Source: Octopus vulgaris (lineage: Eukaryota). Taken from it: a stretch of 64,000 bases of DNA. The notes under the pieces are model-generated. The model had not been told where the DNA came from. It saw only the letters and a program-made list of their open reading frames with translations, and made no database searches. The stretch is taken from NCBI GenBank assembly GCA_951406725.2, contig OX597824.1, positions 93,000,001 through 93,064,000 on the forward strand, in the 5' to 3' direction. Numbering within the stretch: position 1 is the first letter of the stretch; each line of letters begins with the position of its first letter. The translations under genes and the position numbers were made by a program. Of this stretch, positions 14,221-50,970 are shown one piece after another.

Positions 14221-15919
14221 CTATTTCTTTACTATCCACAAGGTGGTAAGCACAGAGGGAACAAACAAGGACAGACAAACGGATTAAGTCGATTATATTG
14301 ACCGCAGTGCGTATCTGGTAGTTATTTAATCGACCCCGAAAGGATAAAATGTAAAGTCGACCTCGGTGGAATTTGATCTCAGAACGTAGCGGCAGACGAA
14401 ATACCTATTTCTTTATTACCTACAAGGAGCTAAACACAGAGGGGACACACAAGGACAGACAAACGGATTAAGTCGATTACATCGACCCCAGTGCGTAACT
14501 GGTACTTTATTTATCGACCGCGAAAGGATGAAAGGTAAAGTCGTCTTCGGCGGAATTTGAACTCAGAACGTAGCGGCAGACGAAATACCTATTTCTTTAC
14601 TACCCACAAGGGGTTAAAGACAGAGGGAACAAGCAAGGATAGAGAAACGGATTAAGTCGATTATATCGACCCCAGTGCGTAACTGGTACTTATTTAATCG
14701 ACCGCGAAAGGATGAAAGGCAAAGTCGACCTCGGTGGAATTTGATCTCAGAACGTAACGGCAGAGGAAATACCTATTTCATTACTACCCACAAGGGGTTA
14801 AACACAGAGGGAACAAGCAAGGATAGACAAACGGATTAAGTCGATTGTATATGGACCCCAGTACATAACTGGTACTAAATTTATCGACCCCGAAAGGATG
14901 AAAGGCAAAGTCGACCTCGGTGGAATTTGATCTCAGAACGTAACGGCAGAGGAAATACCTATTTCATTACTACCCACAAGGGGTTAAACACAGAGGGAAC
15001 AAGCAAGGATAGACAAACGGATTAAGTCGATTGCATAGACCCCAGTGCGTAACTGGTACTTAATTTATCGACCTCGAAAGGATGAACGGCAAAGTCGACC
15101 TCGGTGGAATTTGATCTCAGAACGTAACGGCAGAGGAAATACCTATTTCTGTACTACCCACAAGGGGCTAAACACAGAGGGAACAATCAAGGATAGACAA
15201 ACGGATTAAGTCGATTGTATATGGACCCCAGTACGTAACTGGTACTTAATTTATCGACCGCGAAAGGATGAAAGGCAAAGTCGACCTCGGTGGAATTTGA
15301 TCTCAGAACGTAACGGCAGAGGAAATACCTATTTCATTACTACCCACAAGGGGCTAAACACAGAGGGAACAAGCAAGGATAGACAAACGGATTAAGTCGA
15401 TTGTATATGGACCCCAGTACGTAACTGGTACTTAATTTATCGACCCCGAAAGGATGAAAGGCAAAGTCGACCTCGGTGGAGAACGTAACGGCAGACGAAA
15501 TACCTATTTCTTTACTACCCACAAGGGGCTAAACACAGAGGGAACAATCAAGGATAGACAAACGGATTAAGTCGATTGTATATGGACCCCAGTACGTAAC
15601 TGGTACTTAATTTATCGACCGCGAAAGGATGAAAGGCAAAGTTGACCTCGGCGGAATTTGATCTCAGAACGTAACGGCAGGCGAAATACCTATTTCTGTA
15701 CTACCCACAAGAGGCTAAACACAGAGGGAACAAGCAAGGATAGACAAACGGATTAAGTCGATTATATTGACCGCAGTGCGTAACTGGTACTTATTTAATC
15801 GACCGCGAAAGGATGAAAGGTAAAGTCGACCTCGGCGGAATTCGATCTCAGAACGTAGCGGCAGATGAAATACCGCTAAGCATTTCGCCGATGTGCTAAC
15901 GTTTCTGCCAGCTCCCCGC
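14221..15919 (-). repeat. Head-to-tail 9-unit array of SINE family B (one complete tRNA-like head plus 8 headless bodies)
   Basis: Plus-strand unit starts ~14221, 14405, 14589, 14773, 14959, 15143, 15329, 15504, 15690; period 184-186 bp (one 175 bp). Confidence 0.95.
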
Positions 15920-19724: not shown

Positions 19725-19955
19725 TATCTGTTTCTGTACTACCCACAAGAGGCTAAACACAGAGAGAACAAACAAGGACAGAGAAACGGATTAAGTCGAT
19801 TATATCGACCCCAGTGCGTAACTGGTACTTATTTAATCGACCACGAAAGGATGAAAGGCAAAGACGACATCAGCGGAAGTTGAACTCAGAACATAACGGC
19901 AGACAAAATACGGCTAAGCATTTCGCCCGGCGTGCTAACGTTTCTGCCAGCTCGC
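19725..19955 (-). mobile_element. SINE family B monomer
   Basis: Colinear with 47401-47630. Confidence 0.9.
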
Positions 19956-23796: not shown

Positions 23797-24155
23797 AGGC
23801 GGTGAGCTGGCAGAAACGTTAGCACGCTTTGCGAAATGCGTAGCCGTATTTCGTCTGCCGTTACGTTGTGAGTTTAGATTCTGCCGAGATCGACCTTGCA
23901 TTTCATCCTTTCGGATTAAATAAGTACCAGTTACGCACTGGAGTCGATATAATCGACTTAATCCGTTTGTATGTCCTTGTTTGTCCCGTCTGTGTTAAGC
24001 CCCGTGTGAGTAGTAAAGAAACAGGTATTTCGTCTGGCTATACGTTCTGAATTCAAATTCCTCCGAGGTCGACATTGCATTTCATCCTTTCGGATCTAAT
24101 CGAGTAGCCCCCTCCCCCAAATTTTCTGGCCTTGGGCCTAGAGTAGAAAAGATTA
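23797..24155 (+). mobile_element. SINE family B heterodimer nested in an older opposite-strand B copy (~23690-24245)
   Basis: Complete unit, junction AAGAAACA/GGTATTTCG at ~24022, second unit with the alternative tail; flanks ATTATTTGATGAA and ATTATTTTATGAA. Confidence 0.85.
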
Positions 24156-26709: not shown

Positions 26710-29700
26710 CTAGTTTGTGAATCCACCTCTGATACGTGGCACTTGATCAACAAGGGAGTTCGATGCTGCTGCCCGCATCCGTGTCTCCTGTCGTGAGGTA
26801 GGTTCATCTGGGACTCCCAACAAGAAGAGATCCAGTTTAGTTTTAAAGAAACCCACATCCACACCATGTAAGTCTCTCAGGCATTTAGGGAGGATGTTGA
26901 AAAGCTGTGGTCCTCTGAAACCCAAGCTGTTGCAGTATCTGGACCTGTATTTTGATGGTGATGTTGGAATCCTTGGCACCACGCAGCGGCGCCCTGTTCT
27001 GCGGTTGGAGTAACTTTGAATGCCAAAGTTTGGGACAAGACCCTCCAGGATTTTCCAGATGTATATTACTGCATATCTCTCCCGCCTCCGCTCCAGGGAG
27101 AAGAGGTTTAATACCTTCAGTCTTTCCCAGTAGCTGACATTTTGCATTGAGACGATTTTCTTTGTGTAGCTTCTCTGAGTTGCTTCGAGTTCTGCTGTTT
27201 GTTTTATATTGTGTGGTGACCAAAGTTGGGAGCAGTAGTCCAAGCGGCTGAGGACAAATGTTTTCCATAGGACCATCAGTGTCTCCTTCTCTCTTGTTCT
27301 GAAAGTTCGGAGAATCCATCCAGCTAGCCGTCTGCATTTTATCACCAGATTAGCAATATGCATTTGGAAAGATGCATCATTGCTCATGTCAATGCCCAGG
27401 TCACGCACTGATTTTGACTCAGGGATTGCAATTCTTCCTGGGCCAGTGTATCCAGTCTTCACGTCATTTACCTTTGTGTGCCAGTAGCGCAGGGCCTGGA
27501 ACTTACCTGCATTAAACTGCATGTTGTTGTCCTCAGCCCACCTGTATATTGTGTCCAGCTCATGTTGCAGATGCGCAATATTTTCAGGGTTCTGTATTGC
27601 GTGGGAGACCTTTGTGTCATCTGCATAGCTAGCAAGGGTGGTCATCGTAGCAACTGAAGGCATGTCTGAAAGGGCCACTATGAACATCAGTGGCCCCAAG
27701 ACAGTGCCCTGTGGGACACCGCTTGTTATTTGCGTTTCCCTGGAGGTGGCTCCATTGCTCACAACTGCCTGTTTTCTGTCTTTTAGGAAGTTGTGCAGCC
27801 ACTCTCCAAGTTTCCCGCCTATGCCGAGACCACGCAGTTTGTGACAGATCATACCATGGTCGACTTTATCAAAGGCTTTTGCAAAGTCAAGATATATTAC
27901 ATCCACATTTGAGCCATTTAGTAGCTGTTTCAACACCCAGTCATAGTGTTGCAGGAGCTGTGTTAGGCAGCCTCTACCTGGTCGAAATCCATGCTGGGTG
28001 TCAGACAGTAAGTCATTTTCTTCAAGGAACATGATTAGTTTCTTACAGACTATTCGTTCCATGACTTTGCTGATGTGTGAGGTCAGAGAGATAGGCCTAT
28101 AATTTTTAGCATCTGCTCTGCTACCTCCCTTATGGATAGGGCATATTACCCCCTCTTTCAGTTTGACTGGGAGCTTACCACTTGCAAGAAAGCTCTGAAA
28201 AAGAAGCTGTAGCGGTTTTGCAAGGGCTCGTTTGCACGATTTGAGAAGGATCGCTGGGAATCCATCAGGTCCAGCAGCTGAGTTTGTGTCAATCTCATCA
28301 ATGGCTAGTGTGATATCATCATCTTCGATGTTGATGTACTCAATTTTTGTCTCTTTGGCCGCTGGTAAAGTGGCAAAGAATTCTTCTGGGTTGTTTACTT
28401 GCCTGTGTCCTAGAGGTGTAGTGAATACACTTTGGAACTGTTCGTTCAGTATTTCACTTATCCTCGTGGGATTTCCTGTGAGAGAGCCATCTTTTTGGAA
28501 GAGAGGTCCTATTCTCTGGTGCACTGTGGCTGTCTCTTTGGCAAACTTAAAGAAAGCTTTAGGGTTTGATTTTATATTTTCTATTACCCAAGCTTCTTTA
28601 TCTGCTCTCTCCTTTTCATGGGACTGATGTAGACTTTTCTCAGTTTCCATTAGCATTCTTTCGAGCCGAGACTTCTCACCACTTTTGGTGTGCTTGCTCA
28701 GGCGGTTTGCAATCCTTGTCCGTCGTCTCATAAGAATCCTCCTTTCTCTAGGGATCCTGTTTTTATTCTTGTGTGTGCTGGCCCTGCACATTGGGACATA
28801 TTTGTCACATATGGCTTGTATTATGGACATGAAGTGTTTGTGTTTCATGTTTATGTCCGGTGTGGAGAGACATTCAGGCCAATCCTGTTTGAGGATCTCT
28901 TTCTCAATCGACTTCCAGTTGGCTTTATGAAAGTTTAAGTTGGAGAGATGGTGGGTGCTTCGTATAGGCTGTGTGTCTGCGGGGGCTTTTGTTCCATACG
29001 TAGACAGCTCTATTATGTTGTGATCCGAGATCATTGTCGGCATCACATTAACATTATGGATAATATCCATATTGTTTGTAAAGCAGAGATCCAGTATATT
29101 ATCTGCCCTTGTTGGTTGCAGAACTATTTGCTCCATGAAAGAGGTATTTGTGAGATGGAGCAGGGACTCCACCTGTGCCTGCTGATGGTGTGTCATCCCT
29201 GGGAGCATCTGCCCCCCAGGCCATTCCACATTGGGGAGGTTAAAGTCACCCATGAAGAATACACTGTTGTGCTGTTCAAGGTTGGTGAGGACTTCTCCTA
29301 TTTTTGTTAGGCAGTCTTCAAACATGCCTGAGTGTTTTGGGGCGTCTGGTGGGCGATATGTAGTGCATATGACGATATTCAGTTGTCTTATGTGTACAAT
29401 TTGAGTTTCACATACTGAGTTTGAATATGACAGCAGGACCTGGGGCGTGAGGTCATCTCGGATGTACATTGCAACTCCACCATGGCTCCTCCCTTTTCTA
29501 TCTGTGCGTATGACTGCATATTGCGGCATGTGTATTTCTGCATCACCTATATCGGGTTCAAGATGCGTTTCTGTGAGTGCCATGCATATAGCTTGATTGC
29601 ATGTCACAAGGTCTCTCAGGAATGAAATTTTCTTTTTACAGTTTCCGCGCAGCAGCCCTCCTACATTCAGTAGAAATATTTTTGTGGTGTGTGTGTTGGT

Positions 29701-29814
29701 GTTGGTGTCTGTGGTGGCCATCCTGCATCTGTTGGAGGTGGCCTTATGTGGTGGTAGTTCCAGCTTTGTGCTTGTAGCCAGGTCAGCTGCTGAACAATTT
29801 TTTGTGCCATGCAC
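26710..29814 (-). CDS. LINE ORF2: APE endonuclease plus reverse transcriptase (first ATG at 29721)
   Basis: 1034-aa open frame. APE motifs LLNVGGL, TETHL, HGGV, YRPP, GDFN, ILDL, SDH; RT motifs [34 protein letters not shown]; CR1-like C-terminal SLERRRER. Confidence 0.97.
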
Positions 29815-30298
29815 AAAAAGACTGCTGTTCAGCTGCCGCCCTTCTCACATCTGGGTGAAGCTGGCCACCTGTTGGGTTTCCGCGCACCACATCTGCATAC
29901 CGTCTTTCAGTAGTGGTCAGTGCGCTTTTTTCCCTTCTTTTAACTTTTTGTTTTTGTTCTCCCTGAGGGAGGGACCTCTGTCTCGCGTCCGTGCGGTTTT
30001 GGTAGGGCCTCCGATGTGCAAAGCGACAGTTTGCACCTTCAACGCCGTACCAGCAGTCCCCCCTCAGGTAGAATTTGCAGGTGTTTCTTTCCCTGCCCTT
30101 ACAGTTTTTGCTGGGGTCCCTCTGCTTTCTCTGGACAGGGCTTCCTTTAGCCTTGATTCTGTCACCCTTTACCTCCTGCTTCCCATCAATTCCAGGGTGC
30201 CTTTCCTTTCTTGCGGCCATCGCACCTCTTTGGTCTTCAGTTGTGGTGTTGGAAGCTGGACATGTGTCATCGTTTCCCTGTGTTCCAGGCTTCTCCAT
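29783..30298 (-). CDS. LINE ORF1 C-terminal part with CCCH zinc finger
   Basis: [22 protein letters not shown] (C-x7-C-x8-C-x3-H) in a basic protein directly upstream of ORF2; frame stays open upstream (DEESIQSQ) to about 30322. Confidence 0.8.
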
Positions 30299-30311
30299 TT
30301 GGCTCTGGATG

Positions 30312-30376
30312 CTTTCCTCATCCTTTCCTCATCCTTTCCTCATCCTTTCCTCATCCTTTCCTCATCCTTTCCTCAT
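30312..30376. repeat. 11-bp tandem repeat (CTTTCCTCATC) x6 at the LINE 5' junction
   Basis: Five complete units plus one 10-bp unit read directly. Confidence 0.95.
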
Positions 30377-45131: not shown

Positions 45132-45437
45132 TTGTTTCATATTTTGGCAGAAAGTCGGCAAGTTCGGAGAAAGTTCTACTTTCGTAGTGGCAGACGAAAT
45201 ACTTATTTCTTTATTGCCCACAAGGGGCTAAACATAGAGGGGACAAACAGGGACAAACAAGGGGATTAAGTCGATTACATCGCCCCCAGTGCGTAACTGG
45301 TACTTAATTTATCGACCCCGAAAGGATGAAAGGCAAAGTCGGCCTCGGCGGAATTTGAACTCAGAACGTAACAACTGACGGAATACCTCTCAGCATTTCG
45401 CCCGGCGTGCTAATGTTTCTGCCAGCTCGCCACATTA
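45132..45437 (-). mobile_element. SINE family B plus partial second unit, with 18-bp TSD
   Basis: TGGTCTCTTTTTAATATT at 45114-45131 and 45438-45455. Confidence 0.85.
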
Positions 45438-46369: not shown

Positions 46370-46457
<88 letters not shown>

Positions 46458-46599
46458 TCTTTATTACCCACAAGGGGCTAAACACAGAGGGTACAAACTA
46501 GGACAGACATAGGTATTAAGTCGATTACATCAACTCCAGTGCGTAACTGGTACTTAATTTATCGACCCCGAAAGGATGAAAGGCAAAGTTGGCCTCGGC

Positions 46600-46637
<38 letters not shown>

Positions 46638-47308: not shown

Positions 47309-47403
<95 letters not shown>

Positions 47404-47810
47404 TTTCTTTACTACCCACAAGGGGCTAAACATAGAGGGGACAAACAAGGACAGACAAAGGGATTAAGTCGATTACATCGACCCCTGTGCGAAACTGGTA
47501 CTTTATTTATCGACCCCGAAAGGATGAAAGGCAAAGTCGACCTCGGCGGAATTTGAACTCAGAACGTAACGACAGACGAAATACCGCTAAGCATTTCGCC
47601 CGGCGCGCTAACGTTTCTGCCAGCTCGCCAATAGATAGATAGATATAGCTATATGTATATATGCGACAGGCTTCTGTAAGTTTCCGTCTACCAAATCCAC
47701 TCAAGGTTTTGGTCGATCCGAGGCTACAGTAGAAGACACTTACCCAGTGTGCCAGGTAGTGGAAATGAACCCGGAACACTATAGTTGCCACTTACCACAC
47801 AGCCAAACCC
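47148..47810 (-). mobile_element. SINE family A interrupted by a family B copy in its internal microsatellite
   Basis: Tail 47148-47255, head/body 47660-47810. Confidence 0.8.
47401..47630 (-). mobile_element. SINE family B monomer, nested in a family A copy
   Basis: A box TGGCAGAAACG, B box GAGTTCAAATTCC, 3' end GTAAAGAAATA; flanked by (GATA)n. Confidence 0.9.
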
Positions 47811-50622: not shown

Positions 50623-50970
50623 GTAAGGGGTTAAGTCGATTACAACGACCCCAGTGTGTAACTGGTACTTATTTAATCGACCCCGAAAGAATGAAAGGCA
50701 AAGTCGACATCGGCGGAATTTAAACTCAGAACGTAACGCAGAGACGAAATACCTATTTCTTTACTACCCACAAGGGGCTAAACACAGAGGGGACAAACAC
50801 AGACAGACAAACAGATTAAGTCGATTACATCGATACCAGTGCGTACCTGGTACTTATTTAATCGACCCCGAATGGATTAGGCAAAGTCGACCTCAGCGGA
50901 ATTTGAACACAGAGGAAATACCGCTAAGCTTTTCGCCCGGCGTGTAAACGATTCTACCGGCTAGCCACCT
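50623..50970 (-). mobile_element. SINE family B dimer
   Basis: Junction GAAATACC/TATTTC at ~50752, same as in the array. Confidence 0.85.

Follow-up and report, generated by a model that had tools for sequence, protein, structure and literature searches.

The window analysed here, a 64,000-nt stretch of Octopus vulgaris DNA (contig OX597824.1, positions 93,000,001 to 93,064,000), carries on its minus strand a SINE array composed of one head and nine units, located 7 Mb from the end of the 100-Mb contig (Table 1). Positions within the element (ref) are numbered according to the 228-nt monomer at 47402-47629. TRF reported a period of 184 nt with 9.0 copies and 91% matches over 14221-15874, and alignment to the monomer showed that the first element (227 nt) spans ref 1-228 and that each of the eight later units spans ref 45-228, beginning right behind AAAGAAATA or a variant differing by one base. 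These results bear out the architecture given in the preliminary description of this DNA, namely one head followed by units that all restart at the same base and are joined to the exact SINE 3' end. The term headless used there is only partly apt: the units lack the A-box-like part (ref 8-19) and keep the B-box-like motif (ref 72-82), and the base-45 junction therefore lies between the two boxes. We take the motifs at ref 8 and ref 72 to be box-like from their form. The restart base had also been placed in the loop of the head hairpin. The predicted fold puts ref 41-44 in the loop and opens the 3' arm with ref 45, so that the restart borders the loop rather than lying in it; the predicted fold of the monomer is not significant (z -1.53). 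The hammerhead core CTGANGA is absent from both strands of the array, as had been noted, an Rfam search gave no match at E≤5, ribozymes included, and no tRNA gene was found by ARAGORN or Rfam.

Table 1 Coordinates of the SINE and LINE features in the window.
Feature	Position	Strand	Details
SINE array	15917-14222	-	one head and nine 184-nt units
Array head, 5' part (ref 1-44)	15875-15917	-	present once only; A-box-like motif, head-hairpin 5' arm and loop
Unit 1 (U1) body, ref 45-228	15691-15874	-	divergence 7-9% vs U2-U7, 11% vs U8, 9% vs U9
U2-U7 cluster	14590-15690	-	2-7% apart, shared variants patchy
U2	15505-15690	-	array unit
U3	15330-15504	-	array unit; 11-nt deletion
U4	15144-15329	-	array unit
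U5	14960-15143	-	array unit
U6	14774-14959	-	array unit
U7	14590-14773	-	array unit
Unit 8 (U8)	14406-14589	-	10-13% from every other unit
Unit 9 (U9), terminal	14222-14405	-	9-13% from other units; first T4 run on element strand
Family-A monomer	19731-19955	-	
Family-A element (23801-24021) joined at ref 45 to family-B body	23801-24093	+	B alignment 24024-24093, then B tail; outer duplication 13 bp, one mismatch
LINE, endonuclease-RT frame	26710-29844	-	unbroken, 1044 aa
LINE, upstream frame	29783-30328	-	CCCH-like motif
A2-type element (45204-45431) with partial next unit	45183-45431	-	21 nt of next unit, beginning AGTATTTC
5'-truncated family-A monomer	46454-46600	-	within (ATA)n/(ATT)n tract
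Reference monomer	47402-47629	-	inside (TCTA)n tract; 15-bp repeat at both flanks
Family-A element (50754-50966) joined at ref 45 to partial unit	50625-50966	-	partial unit ref 45-172

The divergence of U8 and U9 from the other units is about the same as the mean divergence of copies at unrelated loci (10.6%). For U2-U7, duplication in place, by DNA recombination or RT slippage, seems likelier than a series of separate insertions, and the unit divergences of the array may be taken to show three or four separate units, one of which was copied locally. No T4 run is present on the element strand ahead of unit 9, and a search for an outer target-site duplication of the array found none, which counts against self-targeting. 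The array junction is a short inverted repeat without mismatch (GAAATA-GG-TATTTC), a symmetry that would also allow the RNA tail to pair with the target's top strand. Elsewhere in the window, the three further junction loci named earlier (24022, 45203 and 50752) are all real, and that at 24022 continues into the body of a sister family. The window also contains an apparently intact LINE (Table 1), which we take to be CR1-like.

The SINE is a short, high-copy element, non-coding and interspersed, and target-site duplications were found at 25 of 53 monomers (0.00 permuted). In the 2.8-Gb, microsatellite-rich genome, the exact 23-mer of the junction occurs 29,914 times and the exact 25-mer of the unit end 56,316 times, and their reversed controls 0 times. 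Restarts and loci were counted in 1.67 Mb, fetched mostly around listed matches on one contig. Once tabulated, the junctions proved not to be scattered: restarts after a family-A end fall at ref 45-48 in 220 of 231 cases, at ref 12-14 in 6 and elsewhere in 5, in agreement with the site-specific process that had been proposed. At 143 junction loci, arrays of 2, 3, 4, 5, 6, 7 and 9 units number 97, 32, 6, 4, 1, 2 and 1, respectively, with five or more units in only 8. In 584 kb that are unselected except for including the window, 20 of 42 family-A loci carry the junction, and 34 of 59 A ends lead into it (8 of the 34 from the 14222-15917 array); the remaining A ends, around 40%, count against self-targeting. 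In the contigs and reads of four public runs, the monomer joint with the most support leads from 47585 back to 47402, and a second joint at base 12 is listed too. The former was found in 32 and 20 contigs of two runs guessed to be RNA, and in 1 and 2 raw DNA reads; the raw-read sets X22 and X23 contributed only 11 and 243 reads. The junction is thus a genome-wide feature, and the earlier statement that it is no one-off local duplication holds.

Older SINE heads contain full copies of the element, flanked by a target-site duplication that begins at base 45. They were found by searching for a head that ends just past ref 52 and is followed by a new head, a query that fixes only the upstream side and has 71 exact matches genome-wide. 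Of the first 30 loci, 29 of which are distinct, 27 contain a complete A element that restarts at ref 45 and has a 9-17 bp duplication (median 14 bp), and in 24 of the 27 a non-consensus base private to the host stands on both sides, versus 0.28 after permutation. The hosts include families B, C and D, the C and D copies being old, as well as non-SINE DNA. A control search at ref 91-102 gave 16 matches, and none of these sequences, when read, has a duplication there. The base-45 junction is created repeatedly and independently. Nevertheless, the clear nested form with its host head is present at only 7 of the 143 junction loci, which counts against self-targeting; 14 had been flagged, and the remainder are deletions, unclear, or in one case a targeted locus misbinned.

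A LINE uses the same base. A LINE in (TATC)n tracts was reached through sequences that resemble the tail but lack a SINE body, and a sister copy of it stopped where a SINE body begins, at ref 45. With the last 546 nt of this head-targeting LINE as a DNA query, which stopped short of the junction, the 3' ends fell at ref 45-47 in 29 of the best 30 loci (28 of 29 without the query itself) and at ref 63 in one; the chance of ending at ref 45-47 is approximately 8e-5 per insertion. The SINE bodies behind these ends belong to family A (12), B (11), C (3) and D (3), with one 13-nt fragment. The LINE 3' end also aligns with the last ~60 nt of the SINE, with a score of 53 against 36 for the best of 1000 shuffles; the LINE therefore both ends at base 45 and shares the tail of the SINE. 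Its copies differ by 5.3% from their majority, similar to the 4-5% of family A. Four copies have a SINE head or an array junction upstream, and a duplication is present at L340, L365 and L368, among the few copies with a resolved 5' end. At L365 the LINE lies in a SINE head within a 16-bp duplication carrying host-private bases. At L368 a LINE copy lies inside an array junction, and at L321 a SINE lies inside a LINE junction, which indicates that junctions are reused as targets. No outer duplication was found around 26 apparent LINE 5' boundaries (one locus counted twice), which are probably internal breaks. Two observations count against the LINE as partner. It is rare, with 54 exact junctions, a few of which are SINE variants, and its tail is nearer to that of A2, the SINE subfamily that least uses base 45 (see below).

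The (TATC)n sister family (L222:4954-8343, minus strand, and L223) is young and L1/Tx1-like, with copies 95-100% identical in protein; its 3' UTR is rich in T, and its tail is related to that of the SINE. Its ORF of 1130 aa contains PF03372, PF00078 and PF13966 (endonuclease, RT and C-terminal zinc motif), and its nearest solved protein is human L1 ORF2 (E 2e-53). All 30 head-targeting loci match this ORF, with a median identity of 53%. By its target specificity, the head-targeting LINE presumably belongs to the Tx1 clade. The best 30 RT-domain loci were also considered as the LINE partner and ruled out, as their 3' ends are unrelated to SINE tails; an abundant LINE family with 949-aa frames and an (ATT)n end (L283, L289-L311) dominates the best RT matches.

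The head and middle of the SINE (ref 1-163) are common to at least four families with differing tails, named A, B, C and D. MetaSINE/MESC and OK/OR1/OR2 were considered as candidate names for them. Family A comprises the tail types A1 (216T) and A2 (216C). Ahead of the base-45 junction stand 204 A1 and 16 A2 units, terminal A units comprise 85 A1, 46 A2 and 3 others, and all six units ahead of a base-12 junction are A2. At this second fixed junction, tails ending AAATAAGAAA are joined to ref 12, in 2,033 exact copies; it does not have the inverted-repeat symmetry of the array junction. In hand counts, a 216C tail precedes 84 of 100 listed base-12 junctions (of the 2,033), and a 216T tail precedes 91 of 100 listed base-45 junctions (30,049 in all). 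A1 and A2 thus differ by two tail bases and in their sites, and each site matches the sequence that follows its own tail. The last units at the 143 loci are A1 (26), A2 (22), B (45), D (13), C (5), truncated (31) or unclassified (1). The LINE partner, the base-12 junction and the apparent local duplication of U2-U7 go beyond the preliminary description.

A search for nested insertion at base 12 of a SINE head did not show it: most of the 30 loci carry duplicated 5' head sequence within a single outer duplication, and an A2 copy whose duplication starts at an AGAAAC-like site was seen only at L200 and L213, which lie in non-SINE DNA. Between L192 and L221 (e.g. L193-L196, L203, L205 and L210-L212), one to four extra head starts of 17-27 nt stand at the SINE 5' end, inside a single target-site duplication, and are likely products of the RT jumping onto short 5' RNA fragments. 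At L133 and L152, the tail of the last A2 unit is joined to the head of another SINE family at a TAAGAA-like site that matches the tail. The chain A-B-C at L147:1790-2400 (minus strand) has its B tail meeting the C head at ~ref 12-16 through a common AGAAT, so that family B may also nest by tail homology. In an orthology check at L147, the contigs of four related-organism runs break at SINEs. At L151-L166, partial units stop at a T-run at ~ref 100-103, with a full element behind them; these ends may reflect Pol III termination in copies where the run had acquired a fourth T.

The ends of the copies suggest that read-through RNA exists and that its post-tail bases contribute by pairing with the nicked target. 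This reading draws on copies carrying part of the next unit, duplications starting with GGT, extra bases behind the tail, the lack of a T4 run before unit 9, and the tail-dependent sites. Two copies hold 26-29 nt of a next unit inside a clean duplication of 18-22 bp (27 partial-unit loci were examined, and 4 passed the duplication score). Outer duplications at unique sites start with GGT in 12 of 41 cases, the others starting with tail-like bases or falling in (TA)n, (ATA)n or (TCTA)n tracts. In several copies, an extra G, GT or GGT stands between tail and duplication.

The heads of arrays that join family A to family B (A+B) match A heads in their youth (CpG decay 0.110, compared with 0.099 for A and 0.200 for B), and the host head is therefore usually not retained. 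The CpG decay of the terminal B bodies is 0.163, nearly that of lone B copies (0.164), and that of the adjacent A unit is 0.071. A young head and A body ahead of an old B body would fit insertion into an old B copy. In seamless dimers, a private base of the last unit at ref 46-56 recurs in the first unit in only 9 of 37 cases, with 0.07-0.08 further down; this low share and the youth of the A+B heads count against self-targeting. Longer arrays show another pattern. In arrays of 4-7 units other than that at 14222-15917, the derived alleles of middle units match the last unit in the 5' part (71:14) and the first unit in the 3' part (46:2). Such a pattern points to duplication of a junction-spanning segment.

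Self-targeted retrotransposition plus local duplication best explains the genome-wide junction, with a probability that we put at about 0.75 on the sequence evidence. Rows were likely started by insertion into older copies, given one fixed junction base and a LINE ending at that base; the nested copies with their base-45 duplications speak for the self-targeted insertion that the preliminary description had offered as one of two routes. LINE enzymes would likely nick base 45 of an older SINE head and copy SINE RNA into the nick, the mobilising LINE being suggested by the common end base and tail. Where a unit has no T4 run, its transcripts would run into the next unit, and the extra GGUAUUUC on such read-through RNA may pair with the nicked target and help to fix the site. 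The second head could be lost in two ways: the new cDNA may anneal to the homologous host head and replace it, or the read-through RNA of a nested copy may be reinserted elsewhere. Per base, the outer duplications of A+B arrays have 0.084 mismatches, against 0.071 in monomers of A and 0.139 in those of B (n=8); this intermediate value does not separate the two routes. Dimers were likely lengthened by further insertions and local duplication, and arrays of at least four units would have grown by duplicating a junction-spanning segment. Head replacement and post-tail pairing both have precedents. In R2 with upstream 28S sequence, annealing of cDNA to the target gives seamless 5' junctions, junctions with a duplicated target being a minority (PMC3774820), and in SART1, as also in R1 by a second-hand account in the SART1 source, target-like bases past the RNA 3' end raise the accuracy of priming (PMC7265360). 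These are autonomous elements in rDNA or telomeres, in contrast to a SINE targeting itself.

An array could also arise in one insertion by template switching, the cDNA end pairing with the junction extension of another RNA or jumping to its 3' end. This would account for the several elements with extra 5' head fragments inside a single duplication, for the single outer duplication and donor-type heads of about half of the arrays (43 of 83), and for mixed chains such as A1-A1-A2-B within one duplication. However, the terminal B bodies are decayed like lone B copies, 2.3 times as much as their A neighbours, which fits old DNA better than fresh RNA, and neither the nested copies with host-private duplications nor the LINE in a head at L365 would be explained; we regard template switching as unlikely. 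Far less probable is the spread by retroposition of one ancestral dimer master, with longer arrays formed by unequal crossing-over. Local duplication does account for the middle units of long arrays, A1 followed by A2 is a frequent order in A-A dimers (14 of 24), and read-through RNA is retroposed at least sometimes, all of which would suit a master. Yet the last units are drawn from many families, the duplications at base 45 are independent, and the terminal B bodies form no daughter clusters (among 703 pairs, at most two rare variants are shared, and never two in both units). Common descent from one dimer, which had been named at the outset as one of two findings that would refute the proposed site-specific process, is largely refuted already.

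The second route offered in the preliminary description, a loop-cleaved circular RNA of 184 nt reverse-transcribed around the circle, has a model in animal retrozymes, which form head-to-tail units of a length similar to that of the array units. The restart base borders the loop of the predicted hairpin, the middle units of long arrays are nearly identical, and the junction appears in the contigs of the two guessed-RNA runs, although a linear array would give the same contigs. The units of the arrays, unlike retrozymes, are not copies of one template. At diagnostic sites, the two units of A-A dimers (n=24) disagree at 81 of 176 positions (0.46, versus 0.49 for permuted pairs), and only one of the 24 is fully concordant. 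Raw adjacent-unit distance was dropped from this comparison, since old identical units would diverge too. Dimers also combine different subfamilies or families, the last units often belonging to other families, the middle units are hybrids of the first and last, a LINE several kb long uses the identical base, and neither a hammerhead core nor an Rfam ribozyme match is present. The circle is thus hardly credible, and both it and the single master appear from these comparisons to fail as a general source of the junction.

Within self-targeted retrotransposition, the site might be chosen by protein only, through a sequence-specific endonuclease, a head hairpin recognised in the DNA, or tethering to Pol III factors, with the RNA extension idle. 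The head-targeting LINE is nearly absolute for the base-45 site, and the pure target copy already has the GG found at duplication starts. The sister LINE in (TATC)n tracts is as expected of a clade with endonuclease-set targets (PMC4494074). Against this stand A1 and A2, which are two tail bases apart and use different sites matching their own post-tail sequence, although A2 could be served by another LINE, and the copies with an extra G, GT or GGT between tail and duplication. Choice by protein only is conceivable, and we are rather doubtful of it. A further reading, to which we give somewhat less than even odds, is a self-renewing homing loop. The SINE tail would derive from a LINE that inserts into heads, and read-through RNA would carry the landing-site sequence after the tail, so that the site is inherited through RNA (base 45 for A1 and the LINE, base 12 for A2). 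The SINE would then multiply the landing pads of the LINE, and the arrays would be ordered records of insertion with the oldest family last.

The component parts of this system have precedents, the closest of which, among the literature searched, are crocodilian Tx1-Mar/SINEU and the reptile SINE satellites. Crocodilian Tx1-Mar LINEs and their passenger SINEU-3 have a common target inside another transposon, where sequential insertion makes tandems and template jumps add 5' sequence (Kojima 2015, PMC4494074). The octopus system resembles them in a LINE and a SINE with one target, in tandem copies and in 5' additions. It differs in its target, which is the passenger's own head and sister families rather than an unrelated DNA transposon, and in its arrays, which mostly have one head, with a tail common to LINE and SINE, whereas the crocodilian tandems keep the duplication between full copies. 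The squamate SINE-derived satellites (sSat) are tandems of partial SINEs with one longer terminal unit at many loci, and sSat3Gja1 and sSat3Ati2 span the SINE body and 3' part (Vassetzky et al. 2023, PMC10702118). The 14222-15917 array, a partial-SINE tandem with a longer terminal unit and at least four middle units, is similar. According to the same study, however, sSats arise by duplication and concerted evolution as long, homogeneous subtelomeric arrays, whereas the octopus arrays mostly have two or three mixed units (97 and 32 of 143 loci), with a boundary that is an insertion site. Such homogeneity is not seen here, as the units of the array are 2-13% apart and dimers are mixed like random pairs. 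Blood clam TSD-(SINE)n-TSD arrays have truncated inner units and some family mixing, attributed to unequal recombination (PMC11481361), and the Dip/B2 multimers of rodents consist of full-length head-to-tail units whose origin is left open (PMC8466645). In these two studies, up to half of the copies are in multimers, and the parts considered here report no fixed internal target and no LINE at the same base. The mostly open-access literature that we searched contained no paper in which a SINE or its partner LINE targets the head of that same SINE.

SINEs are usually regarded as near-random inserters and as independent markers. In the octopus, about half of the family-A loci (20 of 42 in 584 kb) are multimers built at one base of the element itself, and such chimeric units likely distort repeat annotation and SINE age estimates in this genome. 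The analysis gives a testable answer to a question that PMC10702118 and PMC8466645 leave open, namely how same-boundary partial-SINE tandems come about at thousands of loci and whether nested insertion or multimeric templates give rise to SINE multimers. A1 and A2, two tail bases apart and at different sites, offer a natural experiment on whether the RNA or the endonuclease sets the target. If the homing loop is true, it would provide a mechanism for SINE-derived satellites with uniform unit boundaries.
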